From a virus, in the IMG/VR virus record IMGVR_UViG_3300045963_000139: a stretch of DNA of 60,289 nucleotides. The stretch is one strand, 5' to 3'. The first letter of the stretch is position 1. Each line of letters starts with the position of its first letter. The notes under the pieces are model-generated. The model had not been told where the DNA came from. It worked only from the letters and a program-made list of their open reading frames with translations, and did no database searches. Shown one piece after another: positions 6,619 through 57,898 of the stretch. The translations under genes were made by a program, and so were the position numbers.

Positions 6619-6637
6619 AGGCAGGGCATACAAGCGT

Positions 6638-7062: not shown

Positions 7063-7063
7063 A

Positions 7064-26505: not shown

Positions 26506-26533
26506 GCCCCCGGCTTACCCCGGGGGCTTTTTT
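26506..26533 (+). terminator. Rho-independent terminator at the convergence point of the two arms
   Basis: gcccccgg-(cttacc)-ccgggggc hairpin followed by ttttttc. The T-tract overlaps the stop codon of the leftward giant gene. Confidence 0.8.
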
Positions 26534-39381: not shown

Positions 39382-41718
39382 TTAGACCTTCTTTAGACCT
39401 TGCATAGTCTCAGCGAGTTGAATAGCGCGCACGGGCGCATTGCCAGTGATGCGGACCTCGAACTTGTCCGTGCGGTAGCCGGTGGGCAGCCGAAAGGCAG
39501 AGTCATCCGTCACCGTGTGGGTCGCAGCCAGCGTCCCGTTGGTGTACAGGTAGAAGTAAAGCGCCACGTTGGAAGTAAGCAGCGGTTTTAGTCTGCTGCC
39601 TGCTACACGTACTCCAGCCAGCGCGCCGCCGATGTCAAGTTGGGTATTGGTCGGGCTCGGGCCAAACCGATTTCCGTTGCCCGCGATCGGACCCCCCGTT
39701 AGTCGCCCGCTCATAAGCGTGGAGTTGGTGGCGGTGATCGCTGCGTTGGTGTTGGTGATATTTGACACGCTGCTGAAGTCAGCGATCACCCGGGCCGCGC
39801 CAAAGTTTTGAAACTCTTCGGTGCGGATAACACGCGATTTCCACTCGAAGTTCTGATACGGGTAGCCGCTGTCATCCCAGAGGTACAACGTAGCGATCGT
39901 GTTGACTGCATAGTACAGCTTGGCCGTGTTCGGGTTGTAGTAAACCGCCGTGAAACTTTGGTTTGTTTCGGTCAGGAAACCGCCTGTGTGCTGGTCTTTC
40001 TCGAAGATGAAGTTACCCACCGAGTGGCTGGCCATGTACTTGTTGTTGTACCGGGTCGCTGTAATCGTTGTGGGGTCCACCTGCGTGCGAAAGTTGTCCC
40101 AGTCGTACACGTAGTTGGTCACCAGCGATGCGCCTTGCAGCAGCGAGAACACAGCAATACCGCCGCGTGTGGGGAAGTACAGGCCATCGTCCATGTTGAC
40201 CATGCCGCGCTTGGATACACAAGGCATGTTGGAGTCCATGCGGACTTTCTGCATGGCGGTCGGCGTGTTGCCCTGAATAATCCACGGGTTAGCGTCGGTC
40301 AGCACGATAACGGTGGTGCCCACAGAGCCCACGGCCACAACAGTGCGTCCGATTTCTTGATAATACTTGGTTGGCCAGCTATGCGGTTGCCCGGGCTCTG
40401 AGAAACAGACGGTCGTGCCGGTGAAGCCCACCAGCATGTTGTTGTGGATGGCGCGGATACCTGTCAGGCCGACCGGTGGCGGAAACCACGTGGCGCTGGG
40501 CAAAGTAGTAGTCAGACTGGTCAGCGGCTGGGTGTCGACAAAACCCGTTACGGTGAGAGCCCCGACACCAGAAGTGGTGCTCGAAACAGCGTCGGTGATG
40601 ACAAACACGTTGGCATTCGTCACGGAAGTTACCGTGTAGGCTCCCGGCGTGGCCGTTCCCAAGGTCACAGTGATACTTATCGACTGCCCCGCGACAAGCC
40701 CGTGGTTGTTGAGTGTTATGGTATTGGCCGTTCCGACTTTGGAATAAGTGTAGTTGCGCGTGCCAAGCGGCACCTGACCGGCAAGGTAATACGTGGTGCC
40801 TGTAGTGGATGTAACCGTGCGGTACACGTTCACCAGCATGCCGGTCGTTTGGTACACACCACCAGCGTACGCGCCGGTCGTTGGAAACGTGGGGATGCCG
40901 GTAATGGTTGCTGTCGTTCCTTCATACAGATAAACCGAATTAGAAACAGGCGAGGGTGCAGACTCTTCTCCCCATGCGGTGAGCCACGTGTAAACGTAGG
41001 TGCGCGCGAGTTGCAAACCGGTCAGGTCCAGCGTCATGGACGTGAATGTCGGGGCCGGTGAAGCAGTGCCATTGGCAAAATATGTGAACATCGTGGTGCT
41101 TGTAACCGTGATCTGCGCATTGGTGACGTTGAACGCGGTGTTGACCGTGACCCCAGAAATGGTGATGTACGCGCCGGTATTGAGCCCGTGTGGATTCGCA
41201 GTCGTCACCGTGACCGTGCTGCCCGAGACGTAGGCTAGATTGGTAATGACCGTCGCGATGCCCGGGTTTACCAAACGCAGGGCGGCACCGGCAGTCACGG
41301 TTGATGCGGTCAAAGGTGCGGGAAGCCCTAGCGTGTAGTAGGTGTAGGGGTACGCCGTGCTGGCACCGGTTGTGGCCAGCGAGTATGTGGTCGCCTTGGG
41401 TTCTCCGTTACCGGCAGTGTCGCCTGTGTAGTAAACCCGCTGAGTGGAAGCATTGTTGGGTACCGGCGCGCGCACCACGTCGACATCGGAGGCCCAGTGC
41501 AGCCACTTGAAACCACCCACGCCGTCGTCCATGGGGTAAATCGTCTGAATAGGTCCTGTTTTAACCAGATTAGCTTGGTATGACGACGCGTTGTAGGGAA
41601 GGAGGTTGCCCGAGTACAGCTTGACGTTCGTGGCAATCTGAGCCGCGCTGGTCGGCAGTAGTTCCGGGGAGAGCTTCGGAGCTTCCCCAAGGAACTTGTT
41701 GATCTGGATTGCGGGCAT
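39382..41718 (-). CDS. Putative tail (nozzle/tubular-B-like) protein
   Basis: 778-aa T/G/Y-rich beta-type protein. TAATG coupling. Function inferred from size and position. Confidence 0.5.
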   Translation of the reverse strand: MPAIQINKFLGEAPKLSPELLPTSAAQIATNVKLYSGNLLPYNASSYQANLVKTGPIQTIYPMDDGVGGFKWLHWASDVDVVRAPVPNNASTQRVYYTGDTAGNGEPKATTYSLATTGASTAYPYTYYTLGLPAPLTASTVTAGAALRLVNPGIATVITNLAYVSGSTVTVTTANPHGLNTGAYITISGVTVNTAFNVTNAQITVTSTTMFTYFANGTASPAPTFTSMTLDLTGLQLARTYVYTWLTAWGEESAPSPVSNSVYLYEGTTATITGIPTFPTTGAYAGGVYQTTGMLVNVYRTVTSTTGTTYYLAGQVPLGTRNYTYSKVGTANTITLNNHGLVAGQSISITVTLGTATPGAYTVTSVTNANVFVITDAVSSTTSGVGALTVTGFVDTQPLTSLTTTLPSATWFPPPVGLTGIRAIHNNMLVGFTGTTVCFSEPGQPHSWPTKYYQEIGRTVVAVGSVGTTVIVLTDANPWIIQGNTPTAMQKVRMDSNMPCVSKRGMVNMDDGLYFPTRGGIAVFSLLQGASLVTNYVYDWDNFRTQVDPTTITATRYNNKYMASHSVGNFIFEKDQHTGGFLTETNQSFTAVYYNPNTAKLYYAVNTIATLYLWDDSGYPYQNFEWKSRVIRTEEFQNFGAARVIADFSSVSNITNTNAAITATNSTLMSGRLTGGPIAGNGNRFGPSPTNTQLDIGGALAGVRVAGSRLKPLLTSNVALYFYLYTNGTLAATHTVTDDSAFRLPTGYRTDKFEVRITGNAPVRAIQLAETMQGLKKV

Positions 41719-43016: not shown

Positions 43017-43348
43017 TTCACGGTCCTTTCTATAAGGCGGTCCAGCTTGGCATCAAGGAGCCGGTACTGGTCGGTAAAATTTTTTACAACGTTGTTGAGC
43101 GAATCAATGTTTTGGCTATCCCGCACGTGCAGCGCGGCGGCATCTTGCTTCAATAGCTCTACGTCTTTTTTGAGGTCGGCAAAAAACCAAATGACGCTAA
43201 CTGTTTGGACGATTAACGCAAAGATAAAACCGATGGGTACTTTCTTGTCCAAATGCCAGCTCTCTGGTTGTGGTGGTTGAATTTGATTGACGGCGCGACG
43301 CTCGCCACCGCGTCGGTCAAAACCAGAAGGACGAAACTCATCGCTCAT
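43013..43348 (-). CDS. Membrane protein with a coiled coil, possible holin or lysis regulator
   Basis: ORF 43013-43369 trimmed to ATG 43348 (ATGA overlap). TM helix VPIGFIFALIVQTVSVIWFFA. Confidence 0.55.
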   Translation of the reverse strand: MSDEFRPSGFDRRGGERRAVNQIQPPQPESWHLDKKVPIGFIFALIVQTVSVIWFFADLKKDVELLKQDAAALHVRDSQNIDSLNNVVKNFTDQYRLLDAKLDRLIERTVK

Positions 43349-44334
43349 GCCACACCCACTTTCTTCCATGCGCCGTTGTAGGCGTAGAGCCGGTTATTTG
43401 TTGTGTCGAAGTATAGGGGAACTTGCCCCGTAACTGCAGTTGGAACGCCAGTTGGTGGACCGCCGCTTGCGGGTATTCGGATGAAACCGTCAACCATCGA
43501 AGTCGTACCGGCTGCGGTGGTCAGATTGCCAGTACGCGTGAAAGAACCGTCAGCGTTCAGGATATTGACGCCGTCGCTAAACTGGTTGCCGAGGGGAGTT
43601 GCCCCCAGACCACTGCGACCGTCTGCGTAAATGCGCCAGTGTTCGGATGAGTCGTTGTACAGCCGGATATTATCGTTGTGACTGCTGGCTGAACTTTGCG
43701 TAGTAATAGTAGTAAAGTTGGCAGAAAAACTTACGCCAAAACCACCAGCACGTGTGAACAATCCACCGGCGTAACTGCCACCTGTGTACAGGTACCAAGC
43801 AGCGCCGGTCCAGCCATCAGCCCCTACAGCTTTGTTATACGCTAAATTAAAGTTTATGGAGTTGGAAGTAACTGGGTTTGTCACTAAGCCCGTTTTTATG
43901 TTCCACACACCGTTGACTTTTAACGCAGTAGTCGTGGCAGCAGTTGGTACAAAACTTCCCGTACTAGGAAACGTAGCGCCAATCGGGGTGTTGTTGATCG
44001 AACCCCCTACCGTTACCAGCGCAGGCAGCACAGACAAATCAGAAAGACCTTCGGCTGTCAATCGAAGGTCTATCGATGCCCCTGATACGAAGGCCCGAGC
44101 TGTGTATCCTCCGATACCGCGAACAACAGTCCACACAGTGCCGACAATGTTTGTGACTTTGACAATTTCTGTGTTGGCAAAAGTGTCTTGCAAGCATGCG
44201 TAGAACCAGTTACTGCCCGTCAAAACAGGCGGAAAGCCGAGGGATGATGTAACCGTAAGTGTGGTGTCGGCAGCGCTACAGCCAACAGACAGCGTCGTTG
44301 CCGCGTTGTTTGTAAACTGAACGCGGCTGCTCAT
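43345..44334 (-). CDS. Tail fibre/spike protein, paralogue B
   Basis: ORF trimmed to ATG 44334 (ATGA overlap). N-terminus NWFYACLQD..EIVKVT and C-terminus LYAYNGAWKKV are shared with paralogue A. Confidence 0.7.
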   Translation of the reverse strand: MSSRVQFTNNAATTLSVGCSAADTTLTVTSSLGFPPVLTGSNWFYACLQDTFANTEIVKVTNIVGTVWTVVRGIGGYTARAFVSGASIDLRLTAEGLSDLSVLPALVTVGGSINNTPIGATFPSTGSFVPTAATTTALKVNGVWNIKTGLVTNPVTSNSINFNLAYNKAVGADGWTGAAWYLYTGGSYAGGLFTRAGGFGVSFSANFTTITTQSSASSHNDNIRLYNDSSEHWRIYADGRSGLGATPLGNQFSDGVNILNADGSFTRTGNLTTAAGTTSMVDGFIRIPASGGPPTGVPTAVTGQVPLYFDTTNNRLYAYNGAWKKVGVA

Positions 44335-45290
44335 GTCAGCGTCACTTTCTTCCAAGCGCCGTTGTATGCGTAGAAGTTATTCGTGGCTGTATCGTAGTAG
44401 AGCGCCACGTGCCCAGCCAACGACGATGGAACACCTGTGGGCGCTCCAGACGCGGACGAAATATACAGAAAGCCGGAAGTCATGCTGGTCGTACCGGCTG
44501 GGCCAGTCAGATTGCCGGAAATAGTCACAGGTCCGTTGGCCTGCAAAATGTTGACGCCGTCATCCGCAAGCGAACCTCCCAGCACCAGATTGCCAGTCGC
44601 GGACAACCGAACGTGCTCGACGTTTGCATTGTAAAAACCGATGGTGTTGTCGAGCCCCGCACCCAGCCCGGTGCCGCGAGTAACGACTTTCGTGCCGGTG
44701 GACGACGACATCGTAACGGAGTAGGCATTCGCATCCGCCTGAAAAAACCCGGCAAACGTCCCGTTGTTGTAAAAATTCAAGCGACCGCCTGAGTCGGAAT
44801 TGATGCCGACAGCGTTTGCTGCGTTGAGGTTAATGTCGTCAGAGATCGACGGTGTGGTAACTGTACCGACCGTTACAAGCGTGTACCCGTTAACCGTCAA
44901 TGTACTAAATACCCCCGAGCTTGGGGTTGTGGCACCGATCGGGGTGTTGTCAATCGAGCCGCCAGTAATTGTTTGCCCGGGCACCGTCAAGATGTCGGAG
45001 ATCGTCTCGGCCGTGACCCGCAGTTCAACCACTGAGCCCGACGCAAACGCTTGCGCCGTAGTGCCTCCGACCGCACGGGTGATAGTCCACGTGGTGCCGG
45101 TCACATCCGTTACCTTAACAATTTCCAGATTGCCGGAAACGTCTTGGAAGCATGCGTAAAACCAGTTGGTGGAAGCGGTAGTTACCGCAGGAAACGCGGC
45201 CGATGACGTAACCGATACAGTCGTGGCAATAGCCGTGCAACCAGTGGCCAGTGTGGTGTACGCGTTGTTGGCGAGTTTTACTTGTCCCAT
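44331..45290 (-). CDS. Tail fibre/spike protein, paralogue A
   Basis: RBS aaggaa. N-terminus NWFYACFQD..EIVKVT, C-terminus FYAYNGAWKKV. Confidence 0.7.
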   Translation of the reverse strand: MGQVKLANNAYTTLATGCTAIATTVSVTSSAAFPAVTTASTNWFYACFQDVSGNLEIVKVTDVTGTTWTITRAVGGTTAQAFASGSVVELRVTAETISDILTVPGQTITGGSIDNTPIGATTPSSGVFSTLTVNGYTLVTVGTVTTPSISDDINLNAANAVGINSDSGGRLNFYNNGTFAGFFQADANAYSVTMSSSTGTKVVTRGTGLGAGLDNTIGFYNANVEHVRLSATGNLVLGGSLADDGVNILQANGPVTISGNLTGPAGTTSMTSGFLYISSASGAPTGVPSSLAGHVALYYDTATNNFYAYNGAWKKVTLT

Positions 45291-45299
45291 GTCATTCCT

Positions 45300-46004
45300 T
45301 TACGCCCACGGCGATGGCACCACAGATATGTTGGCGCGGCTGAAACTCTTGTTTGCGCGGGCCCGGGCCAGATTGACCATGTATTCCCACTGCTTGCCGT
45401 GGTACTGCGCGCGTTTTTCATCGGTCCATGGGCGCTTGGGCATAGACATCAGTTCGTGCAGCGTGCCGTGGTAAATTGCGCGCCGGTTGGACTCGTAAAC
45501 GATAGGGTCCACAAATGTCGAGCTCACCGTTGGACGTATCGCCACGAAGAGGTACAGCGTAAACGTGTCCGCGTTGCTGACTGCGGGGACAATCGAGATG
45601 TACTGTTCGTCTTTTTGCGTAACGGCCGAAGGTTGTCCGGGGTTGAGGTAGTTTGGCCAGTCAGGCTGAGTGGCAAAAATCTGCTCAGTGGTAAGACTGG
45701 GTATGTCGTACCATTTCTGCGCATTTGTCATGTAAATCTTGGCAGACAAAATAGCCGAGATGGTGCAGTATGCTTGGGGCAGTATCGGCGCATAGTCGAT
45801 TTGCCCAAGCGCGGTCGGCGCGCCGTTTACATAGGTGCAAGGTACGAGTGAAACTGGCAGCGCTGACACCCGAGCGACTTTGGCGCGATCACATAAGTCG
45901 ATCATCACCTTGTTCATATAGAACCCAAGAACAGCGTCTGGGACACCCGGCACGTTAGGCGAAATATCGCCAAAGTAGGTAGCGTAGGGGACAGGAAAAG
46001 ACAT
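45300..46004 (-). CDS. Hypothetical virion protein, connector/adaptor region
   Basis: 234 aa. TAATG coupling. Function inferred from position only. Confidence 0.6.
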   Translation of the reverse strand: MSFPVPYATYFGDISPNVPGVPDAVLGFYMNKVMIDLCDRAKVARVSALPVSLVPCTYVNGAPTALGQIDYAPILPQAYCTISAILSAKIYMTNAQKWYDIPSLTTEQIFATQPDWPNYLNPGQPSAVTQKDEQYISIVPAVSNADTFTLYLFVAIRPTVSSTFVDPIVYESNRRAIYHGTLHELMSMPKRPWTDEKRAQYHGKQWEYMVNLARARANKSFSRANISVVPSPWA

Positions 46005-46669
46005 TACACAACTCCCGGGTTAGTTCCGGGCGGCATGCCCGCGCCTTCGCCGTCGGTAGTTGCGCGCGAATCGGCGCTACTCTTCAGCAACGACGTAAAG
46101 TTGTCGTAGCAGAGCTTGGCTCGACCGTCGTTAACCGCTTCGTTGTCTGTCATCTCCAGCAATGCAACAGTGCCGTCAAGCAAGACGGGGTAGTACGCAT
46201 CCGGCAATAAGGCCGGTGACTGGTTCAGCGCGTACCGAGCAGGTGATTGCACGTACTCTATCTGCAGAGAAATGCCAGCAGTCGCTGGCGGGTAGACAAA
46301 AAAGTTATTAGCGTTGCGCGGGTGGCGCATCCAGTTGGTCGGGCTGCTGGGGGTACCGATCTGCCACGTTGACACCATCAGATCGAGGGCTTCCCGGTTG
46401 ATCTCATTGAGATTCTGTACGCCAACGACGGTCAGTGCTTCCATGAAACGCATGCTGTCTGCAGGTGCTGTTTGCAAGGCACCGGCTGCCGTTGGCATGG
46501 TTGTAATAAGTGCAAACAAGTCGGGGCGAATGAGCGCCATGCGCTTGAGCGTTTGGTTGGCAAACGACAGGTACTGAGCGTCAGTAAAACGCTGAGCAGT
46601 CAGTACACCTAAGTCCTGAACGGCCAACCGCGCATCCGCGACAACGTCGGACATCAGGAAGGTGGCCAT
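46004..46669 (-). CDS. Hypothetical virion protein, connector/adaptor region
   Basis: 221 aa. TAATG coupling. Confidence 0.6.
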   Translation of the reverse strand: MATFLMSDVVADARLAVQDLGVLTAQRFTDAQYLSFANQTLKRMALIRPDLFALITTMPTAAGALQTAPADSMRFMEALTVVGVQNLNEINREALDLMVSTWQIGTPSSPTNWMRHPRNANNFFVYPPATAGISLQIEYVQSPARYALNQSPALLPDAYYPVLLDGTVALLEMTDNEAVNDGRAKLCYDNFTSLLKSSADSRATTDGEGAGMPPGTNPGVV

Positions 46670-47644: not shown

Positions 47645-48562
47645 TTATTGACGCACGTACAAACGGGCCAGAGCTTCGGGTTTCACAACCGCGTAGCCGT
47701 AGACCTGCAAGCCGCGAACGATGCTGCCGAAAGTGGACTCAGCACGAATGGACTCCATGTTGGTCATCTGGGTAGCGAAAGTCAGGCCCATCTTGTGTCC
47801 AGCAAGGATGCTGAAGCACTGGTTACCGGAGTCAATCACGCGGTTCAAGTTGTGGCTGACATACACGGTATAGCGGTCGATGGTGCCGAGGCGACCATTG
47901 CGCAGAGGGGTTTGGCTGTCACCGGTCAAGCTGGCGTCTTTCACGTCAGATTTCTTAATCATGGCAGCGACCCATGCGGGAATCACGATGAAGCGATCGG
48001 ACTCAGGAGCGTTGGCTTCGTCCAGAACCGCGCCAGAGTCAACGATGTAGTCGATGACGTTGGTCTTGGTCAACTGAACGGGTGCACCGGTTGCGCCCAA
48101 GTTGATGTTGCCCGAGATACGGCCAGCAGCAGCACCAGAGTTCAGCGCCGAAATGCTGGGGATGATACCGGTCAGCACTTTGGCGTCGATCTTGATCTTC
48201 ATCTTTTCAGACGCGTCACGGGTCCACGCGTCCATCAGGTTCACGTCGGCCTGAATGCGGTCCACGTCATCTTCCACGGCAGCGAAGTAGTCGCCTTGGT
48301 CGATATTCAGTGTCAGCTTCGGTTTGTCCGGGCGTTCCACCTGCAGTTGCATACCCTTCTGATAATCACGGATGGTGAGTTCAGGGGTTGTGCGGATGTT
48401 GACTTTGTCGCCAAAGCCTGTGATTTCACCGTTGTAGTCGGTATTGGCGATGGCCGCGCAAACGGTTGCATCGTAAAAATTGGCGATCAGCTTGCTAGAC
48501 CAGATTTCAGGGATGAAATTGCCGGTGTAGTTTGCGCCGCCGCCTGCGACTGGAAATGCCAT
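47645..48562 (-). CDS. Major capsid protein (P22-coat-like)
   Basis: N-terminal NFIPEIWS motif as recalled for this coat family. 305 aa. Strong RBS taggag. Immediately follows the scaffold-like gene. Confidence 0.8.
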   Translation of the reverse strand: MAFPVAGGGANYTGNFIPEIWSSKLIANFYDATVCAAIANTDYNGEITGFGDKVNIRTTPELTIRDYQKGMQLQVERPDKPKLTLNIDQGDYFAAVEDDVDRIQADVNLMDAWTRDASEKMKIKIDAKVLTGIIPSISALNSGAAAGRISGNINLGATGAPVQLTKTNVIDYIVDSGAVLDEANAPESDRFIVIPAWVAAMIKKSDVKDASLTGDSQTPLRNGRLGTIDRYTVYVSHNLNRVIDSGNQCFSILAGHKMGLTFATQMTNMESIRAESTFGSIVRGLQVYGYAVVKPEALARLYVRQ

Positions 48563-48588
48563 AGTAGTGCTCCTAAAGAATCAAAAGT

Positions 48589-49566
48589 TTATGCAGCCTT
48601 GCGAACAATGCGTCCGTCTTGCTGCGCCTTGAAAATGTCTTGCTCAAGCGCCTTAAACTCGGCTTCCTTACCAGCATACTTGCCACGACGTTTATCTTCG
48701 TAGAGAGCAGTAATCTCGCGGGGGTCCCAGATACGTCCGGTGCTATCCGTTGGTGTGACTGAGAGGTTTCGCCCGGGGGCTTGCTGCCGTTCAAGTTCTT
48801 GCTTGGCAGAGGAACGAGCGTTCGTCTGACCTTGAGTTCCAGAGAGAGATTTCCAAGTGTTAAAGATGGTTGCCACGCGTCCTGCGTCACCTGCACGCTG
48901 CGCATCGACCAAATATGTCTGACGAAGAATGCCAGTCATGGGGTCGGGCGTCAGCAGCCATTGATGGAACTGCGCGTTTGCGTTAACCTGCTCATAGTCC
49001 GGTACAGCGGTTCCCAGTGCAGCAAAGAATTTCTCCTGCGCCGACTGCTGGTTGTCTTGCGTCAAACGCTGGACTGCTGGCACGACCTGACGCAAAGCGT
49101 CAACGTCCTGCTTGACGGCACCGATGGCACCGGCAAAGTCCTTGAGTTCTTCACGCGCCGCGCGCCGCATCACATCCACCATGTCAGAACCATAGTCCGT
49201 CGTATCCTGATCGGTCAGGAACTGGGCTGTGGCCATCTTGGCGACTGGAGCGGTCTGCAACGTAGACACAAGCTGCTGCAAATGCTGGACCTGAGCCTCC
49301 AACTGTGAACTGCGCTGCTTTTCAGAGTTCACGATACCCTGCAAAGAGCGCCACCGTTGGGCGTAGGTTAAGCTATTTTCATCTTCCTCTTGGCTGTTCC
49401 CCTGCGCTTTGACAGGCGCTACAACTTCTTTGGCGGGTTTCGGTTCCACGTCAGTCACGTTGGACTCTGTACTTGGTTCGGCGGGTTTGCCGGTACCGTA
49501 CTGAGCGTCAACTAACGACTGCGCAGCTTCAATCTGCTTACGAATTTGCTCTGGGATGTTTGCCAT
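48589..49566 (-). CDS. Putative scaffolding protein
   Basis: ORF trimmed to ATG 49566 behind aaggcaaggaa. Q/E/A-rich helical 325-aa protein directly upstream of the coat gene. Confidence 0.6.
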   Translation of the reverse strand: MANIPEQIRKQIEAAQSLVDAQYGTGKPAEPSTESNVTDVEPKPAKEVVAPVKAQGNSQEEDENSLTYAQRWRSLQGIVNSEKQRSSQLEAQVQHLQQLVSTLQTAPVAKMATAQFLTDQDTTDYGSDMVDVMRRAAREELKDFAGAIGAVKQDVDALRQVVPAVQRLTQDNQQSAQEKFFAALGTAVPDYEQVNANAQFHQWLLTPDPMTGILRQTYLVDAQRAGDAGRVATIFNTWKSLSGTQGQTNARSSAKQELERQQAPGRNLSVTPTDSTGRIWDPREITALYEDKRRGKYAGKEAEFKALEQDIFKAQQDGRIVRKAA

Positions 49567-49584
49567 TTCCTTGCCTTTCAATTG

Positions 49585-49794
49585 CTAAGGAGAAATACCA
49601 CGGCCAAAAAGTCCCTGCGAAAGTTCCGTCAGGGTCTGGACGCGACCGCGAAGTACGTCCAAATTCTCTTTCGTGGCGTGCACCATAGCTTCAAGCTCTT
49701 GTTGCCGCCACTCGCGCAAAAACTCCCCAAACTCAGGATACTGCCGTGAGAGCGTGTCAAACGACTGTTTCTGTTCCGGGGAGAACTTGCGCAT
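49585..49794 (-). CDS. Hypothetical protein
   Basis: 69 aa, helical and charged. Confidence 0.55.
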   Translation of the reverse strand: MRKFSPEQKQSFDTLSRQYPEFGEFLREWRQQELEAMVHATKENLDVLRGRVQTLTELSQGLFGRGISP

Positions 49795-49795
49795 G

Positions 49796-50149
49796 TTACT
49801 GGGTCTTGATAATCAAGAACGTGTACGCGCCAGAAGTCGGGGTGCCACCGGTTGCGTTGGACGCAAAAGTGATGGCCAGTGAGTTCGTGGCGTTGGGAGT
49901 GCACTTGGTAATCCAAGTGTTGACGTTGGTCGGATAGCGCACAGCGATCACGATGTCGTTCAACTCGACACCCGGGATACCGGTCAGCGTCTGGTCCACG
50001 TTGGACGACGCGGCGACAGCGGCGGGAGTCAAAGTAACGGTCACCAGCGAGCTGGGGGCTTTTTCAGTTGCCGCAAAGCGACCGGCTGCGGGTACGCCTC
50101 GGCCTTCGCCGATACGCAAGAGGTTGGTGCTGAAGTCTTCGTAACGCAT
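49796..50149 (-). CDS. Hypothetical small beta-rich protein
   Basis: 117 aa. RBS aaaggaaa. Confidence 0.6.
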   Translation of the reverse strand: MRYEDFSTNLLRIGEGRGVPAAGRFAATEKAPSSLVTVTLTPAAVAASSNVDQTLTGIPGVELNDIVIAVRYPTNVNTWITKCTPNATNSLAITFASNATGGTPTSGAYTFLIIKTQ

Positions 50150-50218: not shown

Positions 50219-50548
50219 CTAACCCACCGTGTCACCAAGGCCCAGCGTGACGTAAACGTCCGTGGCTGCGCCTGAAGCGATCATGCTGAGCTGAGTGGAG
50301 TTGCCTTTTTCCAGCAAAAGTGGAATCGAGCCTGCGCCGCCAGCCAGTGGCATGGAGCCTGAAGCACCGTTGGCAACAGGAACAGTCGCTACCGCGCCAC
50401 CGATCTCGATGTACACGATGTTGGCTGGGGTCGCGTTGAAAATGCGAATCGTGCCCGGGCGCGCGGGCAGCGTAATTGCCGTAGCTGCGACACCGATGGT
50501 GTACCGCAGCGTGCCGGTGTTGTTTTGAAGTGGGGAAAAGGCAGCCAT
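50219..50548 (-). CDS. Hypothetical small beta-rich protein
   Basis: 109 aa. RBS aaggaag. Confidence 0.6.
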   Translation of the reverse strand: MAAFSPLQNNTGTLRYTIGVAATAITLPARPGTIRIFNATPANIVYIEIGGAVATVPVANGASGSMPLAGGAGSIPLLLEKGNSTQLSMIASGAATDVYVTLGLGDTVG

Positions 50549-50557
50549 GGTTCTTCC

Positions 50558-50755
50558 TTACAGGTTAAACAGAGCGCGCATTTCTTCCAGAAGCTGGTGC
50601 AGTCGGCCGGTGGCGTAGCCTCCGATTGCTTCGATCTCGGCGGTAAGAGCCGCGTGCAGGGGATGGTCTGCAAAATCGGCCTTTGCGGGAGCGGCAACAG
50701 GTGCCTCTGCCATCACAACGCCATCGGGGTTCTCAGGGTTAACGTCATCGGTCAT
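50558..50755 (-). CDS. Hypothetical acidic protein
   Basis: 65 aa. RBS ggagaa. Confidence 0.55.
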   Translation of the reverse strand: MTDDVNPENPDGVVMAEAPVAAPAKADFADHPLHAALTAEIEAIGGYATGRLHQLLEEMRALFNL

Positions 50756-50766
50756 GGTTTTCTCCG

Positions 50767-53028
50767 TTAGTCGATAAGCTCAAGCATTGTAGCCCACAAG
50801 TCTTCGTCGTCGTCAACTTGTTCAGCCCACACATCGTCTGGTTCGTGCACTTGCATGGTGAGTCGCAGGTGCGGAGCCCGCGTCTGAATACCGGCAGTTG
50901 TCGTCACTGAGCGCGTCTCCGGGGCCGGGGCTACTGCGCGCGGTCGTATCGAAGCGCATGCGCTGGCACTGACTGCAACGCACCGGGCTTGTAACGCTGA
51001 GCGGGCTTGTCCGAGGGTAGCGCGCGCCGGAATTTCCGGCTCAACGTACGGCACTTCCACAACCACCGGGGCGACAAACAATTCCAAAATGTCATGCAGC
51101 GCGGGAGGCGGTTCGGGGTTTGTGACACGTGCAACCAGTGGGCGGGCCAAAGTCTGGACGCTGCGCCCGGGAGCGATCGCGCGCTCGTCGCGGATGAACC
51201 GGAGGTTTTGCTTCTGGTTGCGGCGCGGCCGGATGGTAACCACTTCTTCCGGCACCACGATGACATCGGGGCCTTCATACGAATCACCGCCAAGTGATAC
51301 CGCAAAGCCGATCACTGTCCCTGATGCGTCCGAGAGGTCCTGTCCATCTGTAGTTGCTGAAGTGAATGCAGCAAGGACATCGCCAGCAGCCAAGCTGCGG
51401 TCAGCTCCGTCAGTTGCGGATGACTGCGCCGCTATGGTCGAGGTCCCGGCAGCCGCGCTAATGTCTGCGCCGTCAGCCGCGTCGGCGGTAACCGCTATCG
51501 GATTTGCGATAACGGCGCTGCTTGCATCCGGGCCGTCCGTTGCTGCGCTGGTTGCTGTCGAAGCATTGACCGTGCTGCCGGAAGCCACACTGATGTCCTG
51601 CCCGTCAGCAACCGCAGACGTTGCTGCGGATACCGCGTCGAGGGTAGTGGCTGCCGTGTCTTGTCCGTCTGTTGTCGCGCCGGTCAGCGCCAGAACAGAA
51701 GCAACCGTTGCGCTGGAGAGGTCCGCACCGTCAGTTGTCGAAGCCGTAGCGGCCGATACCACGGAAACTGCTGCCGTAGAAGTGTCGGCACCGTCAGTTG
51801 TCGAAGCCGTACTGGCGGTTATCGCGGCAAGGGTGGCAGTGCTAGTGTCTTGGTCATCCGTCGTTGCACTGCTGGCGGTAGACACGTTGCCCACACTGAC
51901 AGCGAAGTTTGCTATATCCTGACCGTCTGTCGCCGCAGAGGTTGTGGCGTTGATGACAGAGACGCTGGCCGCACTAACATCCTGACCATCTGTAGCAGAT
52001 GACGTGCTTGCTACGGTCGTAGCTATTGTGGCAACACCTGTGTCTTGCCCGTCTGTCGTTGCGCTACTTGCGGCCGAAATGGCTGCTAGGGTAGCCGCAC
52101 TCGTATCCTGACCGTCCGTCGTGGCGGCGCTGACCGAAGTTCCACCACTGAGTGAGGCAGCTCCGATGTCTTGGCCATCCGTGGTAGCCGATGTACTCGA
52201 CACAACTGGCGCAACGGCGGCGCTGGATAGGTCTTGCCCATCCGTAGATGTTGAAGATGCTGCGACTACGACAGATACTGTCGCACTGCTTACATCACTG
52301 CCGTCAGTCGTCGCAGAGGACGCATTTGAAACGTTTGTGAGCGAGAGCGACGCAACACTTAAATCCTGACCGTCTGTAGTGGCCGAAGAGCCCGCAGCGA
52401 TTGCAGCGACCGAAGCCGCGCTTAAATCCTGACCGTCTGTAGTGGCCGAAGAGCCCGCAGCGATTGCAGCGACCGAAGCCGCGCTTAAATCCTGACCGTC
52501 CGTAGTGGCCGAAGAGCCCGCAGCGATTGCAGCGACCGAAGCCGCACTTAGGTCCTGACCGTCTGTAGTGGCCGAAGAGCCCGCAGCGATTGCAGCGACC
52601 GAAGCCGCGCTTAAATCCTGACCGTCCGTAGTGGTCGAAGAGCCCGCAGCGATTGCAGCGACCGAAGCCGCACTTAGGTCCTTACCGTCCGTAGTGGTCG
52701 AAGAGCCCGCAGTGATTGCAGCGACCGAAGCCGCGCTTAGGTCCTGACCGTCCGTAGTGGTCGAAGAGCCCGCAGTGATTGCAGCGACCGAAGCCGCGCT
52801 TAGGTCCTGACCGTCCGTAGGGGCCGAAGAGCCCGCAGCGATTGCAGCGACCGAAGCCGCGCTTAAATCCTGACCGTCCGTAGTGGCCGAAGAGCCCGCA
52901 GCGATTGCAGCGACCGAAGCCGCGCTTAGGTCCTGACCGTCCGTTGTACCGGATGAAGCGTTAGAAGACGAAACTACTAACGGGCTATCTGCAATAGACC
53001 CATCTGCAATTGCGCCAAAGCCGAGCAT
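50767..53028 (-). CDS. Repeat protein with 26 copies of a roughly 21-aa TDGxD unit and a unique 230-aa C-terminal domain
   Basis: 753-aa ORF. Unit SSATTDGQDLSAASVAAIAAG is repeated, near-identical in the first 9-10 copies and diverging afterwards. Confidence 0.8.
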   Translation of the reverse strand: MLGFGAIADGSIADSPLVVSSSNASSGTTDGQDLSAASVAAIAAGSSATTDGQDLSAASVAAIAAGSSAPTDGQDLSAASVAAITAGSSTTTDGQDLSAASVAAITAGSSTTTDGKDLSAASVAAIAAGSSTTTDGQDLSAASVAAIAAGSSATTDGQDLSAASVAAIAAGSSATTDGQDLSAASVAAIAAGSSATTDGQDLSAASVAAIAAGSSATTDGQDLSVASLSLTNVSNASSATTDGSDVSSATVSVVVAASSTSTDGQDLSSAAVAPVVSSTSATTDGQDIGAASLSGGTSVSAATTDGQDTSAATLAAISAASSATTDGQDTGVATIATTVASTSSATDGQDVSAASVSVINATTSAATDGQDIANFAVSVGNVSTASSATTDDQDTSTATLAAITASTASTTDGADTSTAAVSVVSAATASTTDGADLSSATVASVLALTGATTDGQDTAATTLDAVSAATSAVADGQDISVASGSTVNASTATSAATDGPDASSAVIANPIAVTADAADGADISAAAGTSTIAAQSSATDGADRSLAAGDVLAAFTSATTDGQDLSDASGTVIGFAVSLGGDSYEGPDVIVVPEEVVTIRPRRNQKQNLRFIRDERAIAPGRSVQTLARPLVARVTNPEPPPALHDILELFVAPVVVEVPYVEPEIPARATLGQARSALQARCVAVSASACASIRPRAVAPAPETRSVTTTAGIQTRAPHLRLTMQVHEPDDVWAEQVDDDEDLWATMLELID
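52358..52945. repeat. Nine near-identical 63-bp tandem repeats plus a partial tenth
   Basis: Unit cttaaatcctgaccgtctgtagtggccgaagagcccgcagcgattgcagcgaccgaagccgcg starts at 52358, 52421, 52484, 52547, 52610, 52673, 52736, 52799 and 52862, with a partial unit at 52925. Only a few substitutions per unit. Confidence 0.95.
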
Positions 53029-53035
53029 TGTTTAC

Positions 53036-53938
53036 TTACCAACAAGCAACTATAACAAACCCAGGACCTCCTAGACCACCAACCCCTGGAGTTTGACCCG
53101 TTACCGCCCCGCCACCGCCACCGCCACCGCTACCCGGTGCCCCACGACCCCCATTACCGCCAGCGGACGCTGTAGCTGTTGGGAACCCTGAGCCTCCACC
53201 GCCACCACCTATGGATAGGTACAGGTAGGTTGTGGGAAAACTTCCGTTTGCACCAGCGCCGCCAGCTACACCTGACGTACCTGCCGCACCCCCAACAGAC
53301 GCTGTTATATTTGCTCCAGAAAAAACTGACGCAGAATTGCCGCCAGCTGTACTTGCTGCTGCTGACATACCGCCGCCGCCGCCGCCGCCTTGGGTGATTA
53401 TCCCCGATGTTGTTAGACCTGGGGAGCCGCCTGCAGTTGGTGTAACGGCACCACCCGTACCGCCAGCCACGCCGGATATATATGTAGCCACCCCTCGACC
53501 GGCAATTAAATTATTGCCTACACTACCTACCGTACCTGGGGTGGTGGCATTACCAATTGCACCTGGAGCCGACAGTATTATATCACCCACTGCTGGCGCT
53601 AAATTAGAACCAGACCTAGCCGCAAACATACTAGCAACTGCAGTCCCAGTTCCCCCACCACCTCCCCCAACGTAGCATACATCTGGTAGGAACATTGCCG
53701 GTATAAGGAGTGTTGCCTGAGAGCCGCTTCCCCCACCACCTCCCCCAGCAGACGTAGCCCCTGCCACTGCATCAACACCTTTGCCACCCTGCCCAACGGC
53801 AAGTATGTAAACCATGGTAATACCCCGTGGCTTTATCCACGTTTGATGTAGCCCACCTACAGCTGTCATATCACCGTAGAAAATCTGGATATCGCCAGCG
53901 CCAGCAAAAGGTTTAGGCAGATGGTTGAGGTCAAGCAT
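53036..53938 (-). CDS. Glycine-rich protein with poly-Gly runs
   Basis: ORF trimmed to ATG 53938 (TAATG overlap). Five runs of 5-7 consecutive Gly separated by G/A/T/S segments. Ends GPGFVIVACW. Confidence 0.7.
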   Translation of the reverse strand: MLDLNHLPKPFAGAGDIQIFYGDMTAVGGLHQTWIKPRGITMVYILAVGQGGKGVDAVAGATSAGGGGGGSGSQATLLIPAMFLPDVCYVGGGGGGTGTAVASMFAARSGSNLAPAVGDIILSAPGAIGNATTPGTVGSVGNNLIAGRGVATYISGVAGGTGGAVTPTAGGSPGLTTSGIITQGGGGGGGMSAAASTAGGNSASVFSGANITASVGGAAGTSGVAGGAGANGSFPTTYLYLSIGGGGGGSGFPTATASAGGNGGRGAPGSGGGGGGGAVTGQTPGVGGLGGPGFVIVACW

Positions 53939-54402
53939 TAGTATTTGCCCCCTATTGCTACAACTGCCCAACCAGTGGTACCAGCGCCCGTACTTGTACC
54001 AAAAGATACACTTATACGATAACCCGGAGGTAGAGCCATACTAAGGGGTACATCTATATGTACCGCAGCGGTAAGCTGAGACACTGTTACAGCATTTAAC
54101 GTGACCTCGGCTATCTTCCAAGTATTCAATGATGTATTACTTACAAGCGCACCCGAAGTAACTGTAGGCACAGTGTTGGATACATACACCCGCATCACTG
54201 TTAAGACTGGTGATGAGATACTCTCGCACGACAACCTTTGAATATACCCACCGTTGGTCGCATCAGCAGTGAAGATTGGGTAAATCGTACCAGTACCATC
54301 TTGTGCGGTATTAGCAGTTGGGCCAAGCAATGTTGCCGCTGCAAGCGTGGTGCTTTGGATGTCGCCAACTTTGCTGTAGATTGGGTCGTTATTTCCAGCC
54401 AT
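53938..54402 (-). CDS. Hypothetical beta-rich protein
   Basis: 154 aa. RBS aaggaa. Confidence 0.65.
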   Translation of the reverse strand: MAGNNDPIYSKVGDIQSTTLAAATLLGPTANTAQDGTGTIYPIFTADATNGGYIQRLSCESISSPVLTVMRVYVSNTVPTVTSGALVSNTSLNTWKIAEVTLNAVTVSQLTAAVHIDVPLSMALPPGYRISVSFGTSTGAGTTGWAVVAIGGKY

Positions 54403-54411
54403 GATCGTTCC

Positions 54412-54762
54412 TTATGGCATAGCCAAGCCGCGACTCATCGCAACTTGCATACCGACGTTTGCATTATCCAAAAGTTCTGCCGCTGCAGTGCAGAACACGT
54501 TACTGGTGCCGCTCAGGGTTATCAGCGCACCACCGGCGCTACTTGAGCGCACAAAGTCGCGTGTGAGTCCTGTGGTACCATTGAACGTGCCTTTGCCTAC
54601 TTCCCATGCCGAACCGCTAACGATTAGGTACTGGACGATCAACGAGGCACTGCCAAATGCCGTGGCAAAGCTCTGATACCCCGCCACCGCGCCAGCAAGA
54701 GTAACCGCCCCAGTGCCGGTGGTGGCGGTAGTCTCCTGAACACGGTCTGCGATGTACGGCAT
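54412..54762 (-). CDS. Hypothetical protein
   Basis: 116 aa. TAATG coupling. Confidence 0.65.
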   Translation of the reverse strand: MPYIADRVQETTATTGTGAVTLAGAVAGYQSFATAFGSASLIVQYLIVSGSAWEVGKGTFNGTTGLTRDFVRSSSAGGALITLSGTSNVFCTAAAELLDNANVGMQVAMSRGLAMP

Positions 54763-55364
54763 TAAGCACCGTAAGCGGTGATCGTCTGCGAAGTAAAGTT
54801 AACTGTCTGACCGGACACGATGCTGGTGTTGGTCAAGTTCATGTCGCCGCCGAACGTGATGGTCACGCCAGAACCGACACCAGCGGTAGATGACAGACTC
54901 AGCGTTACTGTGGTGCCTGTCGTGGCAATAACGGTTGTACCAGTGAGGATACCGGTGCCGGATACGGTCTGACCCACCGAGATGCCGGATACGGCCGCAA
55001 AGGTCAGCACATTGCTATTAGCCGCTGAAGTAGCGCTGGTTACTATCGTAGACGACTGGAACACGGTGCCTTGAATAACGGCATTGGTCGTGGTGGCCGC
55101 AGCAGGATACCAGCGGAAGTAACCCGCCGTGCCGGTGCCTGCCGCAGTAACGCCAGTGATCGCGTTAAGCGTGTAAACACCGGTAGTGGCAGAACCGAAC
55201 GTCGCATTACCTGCAAATGTCGCCAGTAGTGTGCCGGTATCGGCCGTGGCGCACGTGGCAGGGGCCGCACCGGTAAAGATTTTGCATACGCCGGTAGCGC
55301 CGACATCAGTGGTCAGAGTGCCAATGGCATTTGTACGGTGGGTAACAGAATACTGAAGTGCCAT
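54762..55364 (-). CDS. Hypothetical T/G/A-rich beta-type protein
   Basis: 200 aa. RBS aggag. Confidence 0.65.
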   Translation of the reverse strand: MALQYSVTHRTNAIGTLTTDVGATGVCKIFTGAAPATCATADTGTLLATFAGNATFGSATTGVYTLNAITGVTAAGTGTAGYFRWYPAAATTTNAVIQGTVFQSSTIVTSATSAANSNVLTFAAVSGISVGQTVSGTGILTGTTVIATTGTTVTLSLSSTAGVGSGVTITFGGDMNLTNTSIVSGQTVNFTSQTITAYGA

Positions 55365-55373
55365 GGTGGGCTC

Positions 55374-55787
55374 CTATACGATAACAACGAAGGCGCTGTT
55401 GGGGGTTGGTAGGGGAAATTCTAGCTCGAATAGACCGTTTGATGGTCGTTTGATCGCATCGAACTCAAAAGTAGCCAATACGGCACCGTTGCGGGATGCG
55501 TTGTACACCATTGCACCCGACGCCTCAAACGAGCAACGCTCTACCTTCACGTCGTTAAACGCAAGGCACGCTACACCATCGATTAAGATTGCGCGACGGT
55601 TCACCAGATGAAAGCCGCCCTTGACATATCCGGGGCCGGAAACTTCATTCTTGGTGGAGTACTTGGTTGTCTTGGGGCCGAGATCGGCCTGCTCCGTAAA
55701 AAGGGCAAGGCGATAGTCATCCCCGGGCTGGTGCACGCCGTTCATCATGTCCAGCTTGGCTTGTTCGCAGATGGCTGTGACGATCAT
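55374..55787 (-). CDS. Hypothetical protein coupled to portal
   Basis: 137 aa. ATGA overlap with the portal stop. Confidence 0.65.
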   Translation of the reverse strand: MIVTAICEQAKLDMMNGVHQPGDDYRLALFTEQADLGPKTTKYSTKNEVSGPGYVKGGFHLVNRRAILIDGVACLAFNDVKVERCSFEASGAMVYNASRNGAVLATFEFDAIKRPSNGLFELEFPLPTPNSAFVVIV

Positions 55788-57898
55788 GCTGCTTTCCCTG
55801 TGGTTTGGTTGCTGACGGTGTTAGCGTCCTGCCCGCCTTTCGGAGCCCCACCGGGAAACGTCGGGGCGGGTGCTGGTGCGCCGGGTGCGCCACCTTTGGA
55901 GATCACCACGTTGCGCGGGGCATTAGCTTGCTGCTGCGCTTGCATCTGGGCCTGCTGCTGAGCTTCTTGCTGCGCCTTTTGCTCTTCCTGCATCTGTTCC
56001 AGCTTTTCTTTGCTAGGGATGATGTCGTCCACCGGCATGTTGAGCCCCTTGGCCACTTCGCGCAAGATTGCCGCGCGCCCGGGGATGCCAACGATCTGCA
56101 TGTCGGCCGGATTCGCTGTGGCTTGCAGAAACTCCATGCGGCGCACGTTTTCCTGTTCCTTGGTGGCCAACTGGATGGCACCCTTGGGCTCGACTTGCGA
56201 GTCGCCCTTGATGGTGTCGTCATCCACATAGCGCATGTTCCAGTCGTACTGGGCGCGCACGGCCTTGCCGATCACATCCATGTCCAGATGCATGATGACT
56301 TGGCGGATACCCTTACCGGCTGAGCCCATCAGCATGGACAGGCCCGACGCGGTGCGACCGGCACCAGCCACGTTCATGTCGCCGTAGACGTACGCCGGAA
56401 TGCCTGACTGGTCGTCGGCGAGCTTGGTGAAGTGGGTGTACACCATCATCAGCTCTTGCGCATTGCTTTGCGGCTGGTTAAAGCGGATGGCGGGCTGGCC
56501 AGAGCCCAGCGGGTCGTTGGTGACTTGGAAAATGCGCCACGGGGTGAGCGTGGTAATTTCTTCGTCCTGTGGCATGCGGTCGATGTTGATTTCCACCATG
56601 GGGCCAGAGGCCAGTCCCATGTTGTTGACCAACGAGCGGGCTGCCGCGTTGCACATATTCTGGATGTCTTCGATCAGCTCGGGGATACCGGTGCCCCAGA
56701 ACGCGCCGGGGCGCTTGACGAACGAAGACGTGTAGTAGTTGTTGCGACCCAGCGGGTCGTAGTTCATAGTGGCCTTGATGACCCAGCGGTCGATCAGCCA
56801 CGCATTGCAGTCGTATTCTTTGTCCGGGTCAGGCACTTCATCTGAAGTCATGCCCCACTCAATTAGTTTGCTGCCGGGGACCTTGCCGGTGAACTCCAGA
56901 GCATCCACACTGGCCGTGGGCCGGTCCCAGATGTTGTACTTCTGCTCCAGCGTGGACTTCATCTGCTCGTTCGGATTGAGCCATGTGCCAGCGCTGCTGG
57001 CGGGCATGTTCTCCAAGACGTGGCTGATGGCGGCATCGTCGTACCCGGGCAGGCCTTTGAGGGCTGCAAGGTCTGGGCGGCTGAGCCGGTGGTGCTCAAA
57101 CATGAAGCCTTCGTTGATGTCGGTGACACCCGGCTCCGGGTAGATGCGGTACGGGTCCACGCGGGTGTACGTCGGTACCAGTTCTTCGGTCACATCAGGC
57201 GCGTACTTGCCGTCAGGCCCCTGCACCCACGCCATGCGGCGTTGCTTGCGTACGGTGGGTCCTTTGAGGAAGGCGTTGGGGTATGTGGCCAAGTCGGAAA
57301 TAAACGCGTTGAAGCCCTCGATCATGCCGCCTTCGGCAAACTGGTCTTCGATCTTGGTCTGCATGTTGCCCGCAGTCTCTTGGGCTTCTTCCATGACCTC
57401 GTTGCGAATTTCCTGCTTCGCAAGGTCCTTCATGTCGTCCTGCGTGTCCGGGTCCAGCGGCTGGCCCGACTGCATGGCTTGCATCACCTTCTGGCCGAAC
57501 CGCTCAGTGATTTGCTGCTGCAGGTCCGGGTTGATGCTGGGCTGGGGTGTGGGTGACACCAGAAACGGAATTTTGCCGTCTTCCAGCAGGATGTCGCGTA
57601 GCCATGACTCAGCGCCACGGCATTTTGTCTCGGTGACCATCATGTACACCTGAGAGCCGCCTTGGGCTGCGATGGCCTTGGCGATGTCTGTCTCGTACTC
57701 GCCGTTGCGCTGGCGCAAGGCTTTGAACATTTTGCGCTCTATGGGCAGCTTGGCGCGTTTAGCGGGCTCCCATAGAGCTTTCAGGTGGGCTGCCAGCCCG
57801 AGAATGAGAGGGTCGTTCTGACGCTCCTGCGCCGACTGCTCTGCCTGCTGGCGAGCGTCGAGCTGCGCATTGTTCTCGATGCGGACGAGCCCTGCCAT
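55784..57898 (-). CDS. Putative portal protein
   Basis: 704-aa ORF, the first large gene after terL. Q/E-rich C-terminal tail. Assignment by size and position. Confidence 0.7.
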   Translation of the reverse strand: MAGLVRIENNAQLDARQQAEQSAQERQNDPLILGLAAHLKALWEPAKRAKLPIERKMFKALRQRNGEYETDIAKAIAAQGGSQVYMMVTETKCRGAESWLRDILLEDGKIPFLVSPTPQPSINPDLQQQITERFGQKVMQAMQSGQPLDPDTQDDMKDLAKQEIRNEVMEEAQETAGNMQTKIEDQFAEGGMIEGFNAFISDLATYPNAFLKGPTVRKQRRMAWVQGPDGKYAPDVTEELVPTYTRVDPYRIYPEPGVTDINEGFMFEHHRLSRPDLAALKGLPGYDDAAISHVLENMPASSAGTWLNPNEQMKSTLEQKYNIWDRPTASVDALEFTGKVPGSKLIEWGMTSDEVPDPDKEYDCNAWLIDRWVIKATMNYDPLGRNNYYTSSFVKRPGAFWGTGIPELIEDIQNMCNAAARSLVNNMGLASGPMVEINIDRMPQDEEITTLTPWRIFQVTNDPLGSGQPAIRFNQPQSNAQELMMVYTHFTKLADDQSGIPAYVYGDMNVAGAGRTASGLSMLMGSAGKGIRQVIMHLDMDVIGKAVRAQYDWNMRYVDDDTIKGDSQVEPKGAIQLATKEQENVRRMEFLQATANPADMQIVGIPGRAAILREVAKGLNMPVDDIIPSKEKLEQMQEEQKAQQEAQQQAQMQAQQQANAPRNVVISKGGAPGAPAPAPTFPGGAPKGGQDANTVSNQTTGKAA

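Follow-up and report, generated by a model that had tools for sequence, protein, structure and literature searches.

A 21-residue tandem-repeat protein of an IMG/VR podovirus as a candidate stalk of an accessory virion fiber

Here, we describe a gene built largely of tandem repeats in the IMG/VR virus record IMGVR_UViG_3300045963_000139, a DNA stretch of 60,289 nucleotides (nt) that we refer to as the window. The gene lies on the minus strand at 50767..53028, starts with ATG, and encodes a protein of 753 amino acids (aa) (~71.8 kDa; calculated isoelectric point, ~4.05) for which homologues were found. On balance, we think it probable that its product is the stalk subunit of an accessory fiber on the virion and that the gene belongs to a modular cassette, exchanged horizontally, which is flanked by the portal and scaffold genes. 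In such a fiber, a short N-terminal peptide would dock a distal, probably receptor-binding, protein encoded upstream. The repeat array would fold into an extended shaft, strongly acidic and rich in beta structure, in which each unit contributes two short strands joined by a tight T-D-G-x turn; the shaft would probably be oligomeric and may be cation-stabilized. The C-terminal module would plug the fiber into the particle or into a companion protein of the family phrog_3758. We further propose that the array recently gained about eight units in frame, through replication slippage or unequal recombination between 63-bp units, which would have changed the reach of the fiber while leaving both of its ends untouched.

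The repeat protein consists of a 23-aa N-peptide, 26 units (aa 24-575; window 51304..52959), and a 178-aa C-module. DGxD or DDxD motifs recur from aa 30 and 51 to aa 561, at intervals of 21 aa (22 times) or 23 aa (three times), which gives 26 units. This spacing, together with the open reading frame (ORF) call, confirms the count of 26 units around TDGxD in one gene that had been made in an earlier note on this DNA. The same note had described a unique C-terminal domain of about 230 aa; a domain is indeed present, but it is 178 aa long, and it is not unique. The C-module (aa 576-753; 50770..51303, minus strand) is homologous to an orthologue, P0023 (40% identity over aa 552-752), and to a further protein, P0100 (32% over aa 598-753). 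It comprises GGxSY, a basic stretch, a Pro/Ala/Val-rich spacer, and an acidic/hydrophobic tail. The basic segment (aa 600-634, RPRRNQKQNLRFIRDERAIAPGRSVQTLARPLVAR; 51127..51231, minus strand) is kept in both P0023 and P0100 and has a K/R-rich counterpart (KPKKKRY) in other family members. The tail (aa 730-753, PDDVWAEQVDDDEDLWATMLELID; 50770..50841, minus strand) contains a predicted helix at aa 737-752 and passes from an acidic run to a hydrophobic end, ...DDDEDLWATMLELID. No other plausible gene of the window carries a tail of this kind.

At the other end of the protein, the N-peptide (aa 1-23, MLGFGAIADGSIADSPLVVSSSN; 52960..53028, minus strand) is a recurring element, since its first 16-17 aa are found in otherwise unrelated stalk proteins behind a gene for a Gly-rich protein ending in ...CW. 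The array between the two ends can be divided, by DNA identity and Tandem Repeats Finder, into a young block of units 1-10 (52324..52959, minus strand) and an old, diverged block of units 11-26 (51304..52323, minus strand). In composition, the array is 59% Ala+Ser+Thr, with 57 acidic, 2 basic, and 3 aromatic residues; its net charge is -55. Plus-strand ORFs of up to 277 aa lie antisense to it (e.g., 51089..51922, with others in 51000-52400); these are not genes but arise from the repeat and its composition.

The two ends of the stalk proteins follow different partners. Across 24 loci, the class of the N-peptide tracks the class of the gene upstream. A Gly-rich upstream gene goes with an N-peptide of the MLGF type (4 of 4 loci), a ~218-aa upstream protein ending in ...AWAE..Y with an MSLLLA peptide (3 of 3), and upstream proteins of 490-586 aa with an MLLAL or MLLIQ peptide (2 of 2). 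Loci L007, L008, and L015 illustrate the first class. Each has a block of a 116-aa-like protein, a protein of 154, 248, or 331 aa, and a Gly-rich (...CW) protein, followed by a gene whose product starts with MLGF. The bodies of these MLGF proteins are, respectively, ~19-aa ESxAVADAY repeats, ~22-aa YTLTALGGSY repeats with an acidic/hydrophobic tail, and six TDG units with a tail.

The C-module, by comparison of gene neighborhoods, co-varies with the conserved head genes downstream. The most informative case is L011, a close relative in which the capsid protein is 95% and the putative scaffold protein 76% identical to those of the window. L011 keeps the C-module (40% identity, with the motifs RPRRNQKQxL..IRDER, ARVTNP, and DPDEVWG..DDD..ATML) and the downstream genes, but its units number about eight and are degenerate, its N-peptide is a different one (MLLALQNLINL...), and the genes upstream are unrelated. 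In P0100, the same C-module is joined to yet another repeat type. Thus, one N-peptide occurs with three repeat types, and one C-module occurs with differing repeats and differing N-termini, as we would look for in a fiber shaft. An N-peptide that tracks the upstream gene and a C-module that tracks the head genes form the pattern expected if the N-peptide contacts the protein encoded upstream and the C-module contacts a conserved part of the particle.

We find no described family to which the unit belongs, in line with what the earlier note had stated. Neither the whole protein nor units 11-26 matched any Pfam family even at E ≤ 10, NCBIfam was negative, and the PDB gave no match by single sequence or by a four-unit profile. 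The lone PHROG match of the protein, to phrog_118 (E = 0.009), was judged to be noise. Among 50,697 phage records, megablast of the 46-58 kb region and tblastn of the protein were both blank, although the low-complexity filter may hide repeat matches. A scan for SSATTDG[AS]D in reference genomes of 185,579 species, one genome per species, gave 86 pattern matches, none of them a confirmed relative. Relatives were obtained with a word-indexed search (21 relatives) and with an exhaustive search of 1.84 billion representatives (185 clusters at E ≤ 1e-3), and those from the exhaustive search are all metagenomic and unnamed. The unit defines a rare, undescribed family that is known from metagenomes only.

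A hidden Markov model (HMM) built from the units of this family has the consensus xSSATTDGADVLAASVSPVVA. Over 232 distinct units, strong conservation is seen at nine of its 21 positions (S2, S3, A4, T5, T6, D7, G8, D10, and A13/A14), with D10 at 99% and S2 through G8 each at 72 to 87%; Pro is frequent at position 18. Family members have one of two architectures: a fused form, with a globular N-domain of 200-350 aa followed by the array, and a split form, to which the window protein belongs, with a peptide of 12-24 aa followed by the array. An acidic run followed by 4-8 hydrophobic residues ends the protein in 58 of 157 family representatives by a loose test (e.g., ...DEEDIEMLLLSL; type, ...DEEDIEMLLL). 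The C-module is the most widely shared part of the family.

The conservation of the unit bears on whether the array folds at all. The array might instead be an intrinsically disordered brush, polyanionic and rich in Ala, Ser, and Thr, perhaps with glycans or other modifications, and serve as a spacer, an anti-adhesive layer, or a mucus-interacting coat. Its composition and charge fit such a brush, and AlphaFold2 (AF2) places most of the array under 50 in predicted local distance difference test (pLDDT). Furthermore, in the related cassettes of L035 (4618-5900) and L036 (7372-8645), genes for a methyltransferase (Pfam Methyltransf_11) and an unassigned protein of 243-245 aa follow phrog_3758 and immediately precede the repeat gene. 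The methyltransferase hints, by its position, at post-translational modification of the fiber. Disordered linkers, however, rarely hold register and sequence as this family does, with a strict period of 21 aa throughout and nine of 21 positions strongly conserved, and AF2 gives strand-turn-strand regularity wherever the alignment is deep. We therefore regard a disordered brush as quite improbable.

The AF2 model suggests what a folded unit could look like. Over aa 169-358, where the alignment is deep and pLDDT is 60-78, each unit has two strands in a regular strand-turn-strand-turn succession: a strand at xAAGSSAT, a turn at TDGQ, a strand at DLSAASV, and a turn at AAI (where the family often has Pro). 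The rest of the monomer is modeled as disordered, except for the C-terminal helix at aa 737-752 (pLDDT ~85), which is the most confident part of the model. A trimeric shaft, either a beta-spiral or a beta-helix, would account for both the strict register and the failure of the monomer model; this is conjecture. Asp-Gly is a classic tight-turn pair, and the uncompensated charge of -55 makes the binding of counter-ions plausible. That the Asp-Gly turns bind Ca2+ or another metal is speculation, for which the sole argument is the 57 acidic against 2 basic residues.

The phage itself is a podovirus with a portal of the SU10/HMO-2011 type. Its closest cultured relative is Rhizobium phage RHph_TM3_14A, with 35% portal identity. 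On the minus strand, the gene order is terminase, portal, a 137-aa protein, a 200-aa protein (phrog_3758), a 116-aa protein, a 154-aa protein, the Gly-rich protein, and the repeat protein. These are followed by four small ORFs, the scaffold, the capsid protein, two SU10-type adaptors (45300..46669), two T7-type tail fibers, and internal proteins. The repeat gene thus lies between the portal and the scaffold and capsid genes (47645..49581), which agrees with its previous description as a late structural gene. Since no more than three small ORFs separate the portal from the scaffold in the Rhizobium phage, the 5-kb block of the window is an inserted cassette.

The boundaries of this cassette are the portal gene upstream (55784..57898, minus strand; Pfam and PHROG matches) and the putative scaffold gene downstream (48589..49581, minus strand). 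The latter is identified by its position next to the capsid gene and by 76% identity to the gene at the same position in L011; its sole strong PHROG match is phrog_13678, of unknown function. Ahead of it are the four small conserved ORFs (50558..50755, 50219..50548, 49796..50149, and 49585..49794). The 137-aa protein (55374..55787, minus strand), which lies between the portal and the 200-aa protein, has zero similarity to gp08 of Pseudomonas phage KPP25.

Similar cassettes are found at other loci. L004 and L006 have the order terminase, P22-type portal, phrog_3758, (x), repeat protein, scaffold, capsid, while the portal of L005 is of the SU10 type. The four-unit profile found 19 IMG/VR loci; in 17 of them, the first or second gene upstream of the repeat gene encodes a phrog_3758 protein of 131-135 aa. 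Those phrog_3758 genes are 54-78% identical to the L004 reference, and scaffold and capsid genes usually come next. That phrog_3758 proteins are 54-78% identical across phages with different portal families (P22_portal and SU10_portal) suggests a mobile module. Counted over independent phage contigs, at least 20 encode a repeat protein with an acidic-then-hydrophobic C-terminal helix between their portal and scaffold genes. L036 and L037, whose companion protein is 88-94% identical, either have a different cassette or are on contigs that end too early.

The genes of the cassette in turn have relatives that point to fibers. The 200-aa protein (54762..55364, minus strand), annotated as a phrog_3758 "virion structural protein", is the constant companion of the repeat proteins; its family has at least 535 matches, and the window has a 200-aa form with a ~66-aa insertion relative to the commoner 134-aa form. 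The phrog_3758 profile matches chain B of PDB entry 44nx (E = 1.3e-9, first 107 positions), which is gp07 of KPP25. This protein is a modeled virion component that was deposited with gp06 and gp08, and further entries of the same virion exist (PDB entries 26la and 26gp are likewise of a KPP25-type phage); no acidic-tailed repeat protein lies beside gp07 in KPP25. The AF2 model of the 200-aa protein has a pLDDT of 86.5 and a predicted template modeling score (pTM) of 0.79. Its best Foldseek match, a weak one, is a 139-aa chain, 9rkv_A, of the tail-fiber model of phage 7-7-1 (E = 4.9e-3, probability 1.0), followed by weak matches (E up to 0.3) to the N-terminal parts of tailspikes and endosialidases. 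A "garland" protein of phage 7-7-1 has been described (PMC12796354), and 9rkv_A is probably that protein, judging by chain length alone.

The 116-aa protein (54412..54762, minus strand) has homologues in the tail-fiber clusters of Methylophilales phage Venkman (gp58) and of MW202481. Homologues of the 154-aa protein (53938..54402, minus strand) precede a Gly-rich protein in Rhodobacter siphophages (RcOceanus gp22-gp23), where the pair follows a host-specificity protein of the gene transfer agent (GTA) type and precedes the lysis genes, that is, it occupies a tail-fiber locus. The Gly-rich protein itself (53036..53971, minus strand), which ends in ...VIVACW, likely has its true start at the ATG at 53938 (300 aa, as called on contig L013), with a one-base overlap with the upstream stop. 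It is always paired with a stalk protein of the MLGF type. The Gly-rich relative in L035 passes the Pfam Gly_rich_2 threshold; the window's own protein has no Pfam match. In L008, two tandem Gly-rich paralogues (317 and 305 aa; 6117-7992) lie ahead of the MLGF-type stalk gene. Taken together, four neighboring genes with relatives in tail-fiber loci or solved virion structures favor a fiber or adhesin cassette over capsid cement. A surface fiber or adhesin, as the earlier note had proposed, is thus plausible from the genomic context. Its suggestion of immune evasion found no support.

The same gene order also raises the question of where on the particle the stalk would sit. The repeat protein could be a capsid (head) fiber or decoration protein, with its C-module on the shell and the stalk pointing outwards, as in phi29 gp8.5, SPP1 gp12, and T4 Hoc. 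In the window and at many other loci, the gene is where decoration genes usually are, between the portal and the scaffold and capsid genes; the C-module co-varies with the head genes; and small beta-rich ORFs of decoration-protein size lie behind the repeat gene. The polarity is also Hoc-like, since the C-terminus is conserved while the N-terminal domains vary, one of them being Ig-like (P0004). In T4 Hoc, the C-terminus is the anchor and the N-terminal domains project. However, the four neighboring genes indicate tail-fiber loci or structures rather than capsids, the protein matches no known decoration or head-fiber family in Pfam, PHROG, NCBIfam, or the PDB, and the same repeat array is also found at the ends of tail modules in L002 and L003. 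We consider a capsid fiber rather unlikely, though a serious candidate, and for a fiber stalk of this kind we favor attachment to the neck or tail, as its gene neighborhood would suggest, rather than to the capsid.

A role outside the mature virion is a further alternative. The protein could be an RTX-like Ca2+-binding protein that is exported through a C-terminal type I-like signal, or else a scaffold-like or internal protein whose C-terminal helix directs it into the procapsid. Its Asp-Gly-rich tandem repeats are followed by an acidic-hydrophobic motif at the extreme C-terminus, and some type I secretion substrates end in a similar acidic-then-hydrophobic motif. In addition, the repeat gene adjoins the scaffold gene, and the top Foldseek hits of its model, none of them significant, are Ca2+-dependent beta-helix and RTX structures. 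The best of these, 3p4g_A, has an E value of 5.2 and template modeling (TM) scores of 0.12/0.22, from a low-confidence model (pLDDT 46.7), and the hits in general have E > 5 and TM of ~0.1-0.2. Against this alternative, there is no RTX or other Pfam match at E ≤ 10, the period is 21 aa and not 9, the conserved companions are fiber-type or virion proteins, and the internal-protein genes of the phage are elsewhere, at 26.5-41.7 kb. A non-virion role is accordingly very improbable.

Recent change in the stalk is recorded in the units themselves. Tandem Repeats Finder recovers an array at 52358-52944 with a period of 63 bp, 9.3 copies, 95% matches, zero indels, and a score of 1020; the runner-up in the 60-kb window, in the same repeat gene, scores only 146. 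Units 2-9 are 90-100% identical to one another at the DNA level, with unit 2 identical to unit 8, and each differs from the consensus at 2-3 of 63 nt. Unit 1 is 84-86% identical to units 2-9. Unit 10 is only ~70% identical to the young units, because its second half has diverged. Among units 11-26, mean pairwise identity is 49% for DNA and 45% for amino acids. Eight sites vary among the young units, four of them synonymous and four non-synonymous, and their states are combined like a mosaic, which fits recent duplication with exchange between units.

These data largely uphold, and partly revise, what had been said of the young block. Its units had been described as more than 95% identical, which is true against the consensus and false pairwise, given the range of 90-100% for units 2-9. 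All of the variable codons listed earlier were found, plus the four synonymous sites; the recent expansion that had been proposed is borne out by DNA identity, including at synonymous sites; and the suggested check with Tandem Repeats Finder returned the 63-bp array. Length variability is also supported, since the window protein, with its 26 units, has an orthologue of about 8 units in the phage whose capsid protein is 95% identical. Phase variation, on the other hand, was rejected. The 63-bp unit is a multiple of three and preserves the frame, so a change in copy number alters length and does not switch expression on or off. The block resembles a variable-number tandem repeat in its near-identical head-to-tail units, whose length is divisible by three. 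By HMM count, the window protein has the most units in the family (26), and the next-highest count is 13. It is most likely that recent in-frame duplication of 63-bp units roughly doubled the length of the stalk relative to any relative found.

The inferred expansion depends on the assembly of the array. Positions 1-127 of the window are identical to 60163-60289, and an independent contig, L013, from the Logan assembly of SRR35489880, is 100% identical to the window over 12.4 kb and bridges its ends. The window is thus a closed circular genome of 60,162 bp and is complete. It could nonetheless be that assembly produced a false count of near-identical units (nine to ten), by collapse, by expansion, or as a population consensus, in a gene whose existence and repeat type are real. 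The 127-nt self-overlap points to a k=127 de Bruijn assembly of short reads, the second assembly of the same phage (L013) halts inside unit 1, at window position 52915, and P0022, the sole other record of the protein, begins after the array. We take the k of Logan assemblies to be ~31, and a k of that size would break at any such array. Against an artifact, exact repeats within the array reach at most 102 nt and every 127-mer in it is unique, so that the k=127 path through it is unambiguous, and every young unit has its own combination of the eight variable sites. An artifactual copy number is, in our judgment, distinctly unlikely.

Several observations weigh against a fiber stalk. The presence of the repeat protein in the virion would follow from gene context, and a position in the head-gene block would fit a capsid fiber equally well. 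The phage already has two conventional T7-type tail-fiber genes at 43345..45290: these adjacent paralogues (43345..44355 and 44331..45290, minus strand) have a common N-terminal adaptor domain that matches tail-fiber PHROG families, which means that conventional fibers exist besides the cassette. The AF2 monomer model of the full protein, from an alignment of 46 sequences, has a mean pLDDT of only 46.7, and Foldseek searches with it against the PDB and BFVD gave no significant match, beta-helix-like hits having been set aside. The model of the 200-aa companion found nothing in the PDB at E ≤ 1e-3. A single k=127 short-read assembly supplies the number of units in the young block, with the interior of the array seen once. 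Lastly, "Rosetta stone" searches with BLAST and phmmer, comparing the upstream proteins with the N-domains of fused-form members, gave no matches; with no homology between fused and split forms, co-variation is what speaks for docking by the N-peptide.

A broader version of the stalk reading can be formulated, which we hold to be unlikely as a whole. The repeat protein would be the rod of an undescribed "plug-and-play" appendage shared among unrelated podophages, with a phrog_3758 anchor, an exchangeable distal protein with a matching 12-17-aa N-peptide, and a universal C-terminal acidic/hydrophobic docking helix. The rod would have a new, cation-stabilized beta-repeat fold whose length is tuned in 21-aa steps through slippage.

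If the gene does encode a fiber stalk, it would add a new repeat family and a recurring three-part cassette (anchor, distal protein, and stalk) in many uncultured podophages, whose genes are currently annotated as hypothetical only. It would also be an example of a fiber whose length evolves by in-frame duplication of units while the attachment ends stay fixed, and matched pairs of N-peptide and partner might be usable for engineering receptor-binding modules. Since the array breaks short-k assemblies, such genes would be systematically truncated in metagenomes.

Two further features of the structural region are recorded here. A 2673-aa ORF without a Pfam match (26533-34554, minus strand) lies at the end of the structural block, where its neighbors match "internal virion protein" (39382..41718) and include a tape-measure-like segment (37179..39014); it could encode a giant protein of the ejection or internal type. 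Within the 611-aa ORF at 37179..39014, positions 38068-38105 contain 3.2 copies of a perfect 12-bp tandem repeat (GTAGGCGCGGGA).

In kind, the repeat protein resembles other repeat-built phage fibers, while the repeat family itself is new. As in the T4 fibritin (wac) whiskers and tail-fiber shafts, a gene of a structural module encodes a long array of short repeats between functional ends, with conserved end modules, exchangeable parts, and a length that varies among relatives. It differs from these in showing no sequence or profile similarity, in a unit that is predicted to be strand-turn-strand rather than coiled coil, and in that the most widely conserved end of the family is the C-terminus. 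The triple beta-spirals of adenovirus fiber and reovirus sigma1 have repeats of 15-20 aa with two strands, a tight Gly/Pro turn, and a second loop. The TDG unit, with its D-G turn and frequent Pro at position 18, may be likened to these shafts, but its length and consensus differ.

The Ca2+-bound beta-roll of RTX proteins (tandem nonapeptides, GGxGxDxUx) and the Ca2+-bound beta-helix of the antifreeze adhesin MpAFP (RIV type; 19-aa xGTGND repeat) share with the window protein Asp-Gly turns, an uncompensated acidic array, and an acidic/hydrophobic C-terminal end. They differ in period (9/18 or 19 aa against 21); the window protein has no match to Pfam HemolysinCabind (PF00353) at E ≤ 10, and the Foldseek hits 3p4g and 7rah are far from significant (E of 5-9). 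With SPP1 gp12 (collagen-like), phi29 gp8.5, and T4 Hoc, the protein has in common a position in the head block and a fibrous or repeat-built nature, but no homology, and the neighbors in the window point to tail-fiber systems. Finally, the likeness to KPP25 gp07 (44nx chain B) concerns the companion protein at 54762..55364 and not the repeat protein, and it connects the cassette to a virion whose structure has been modeled.

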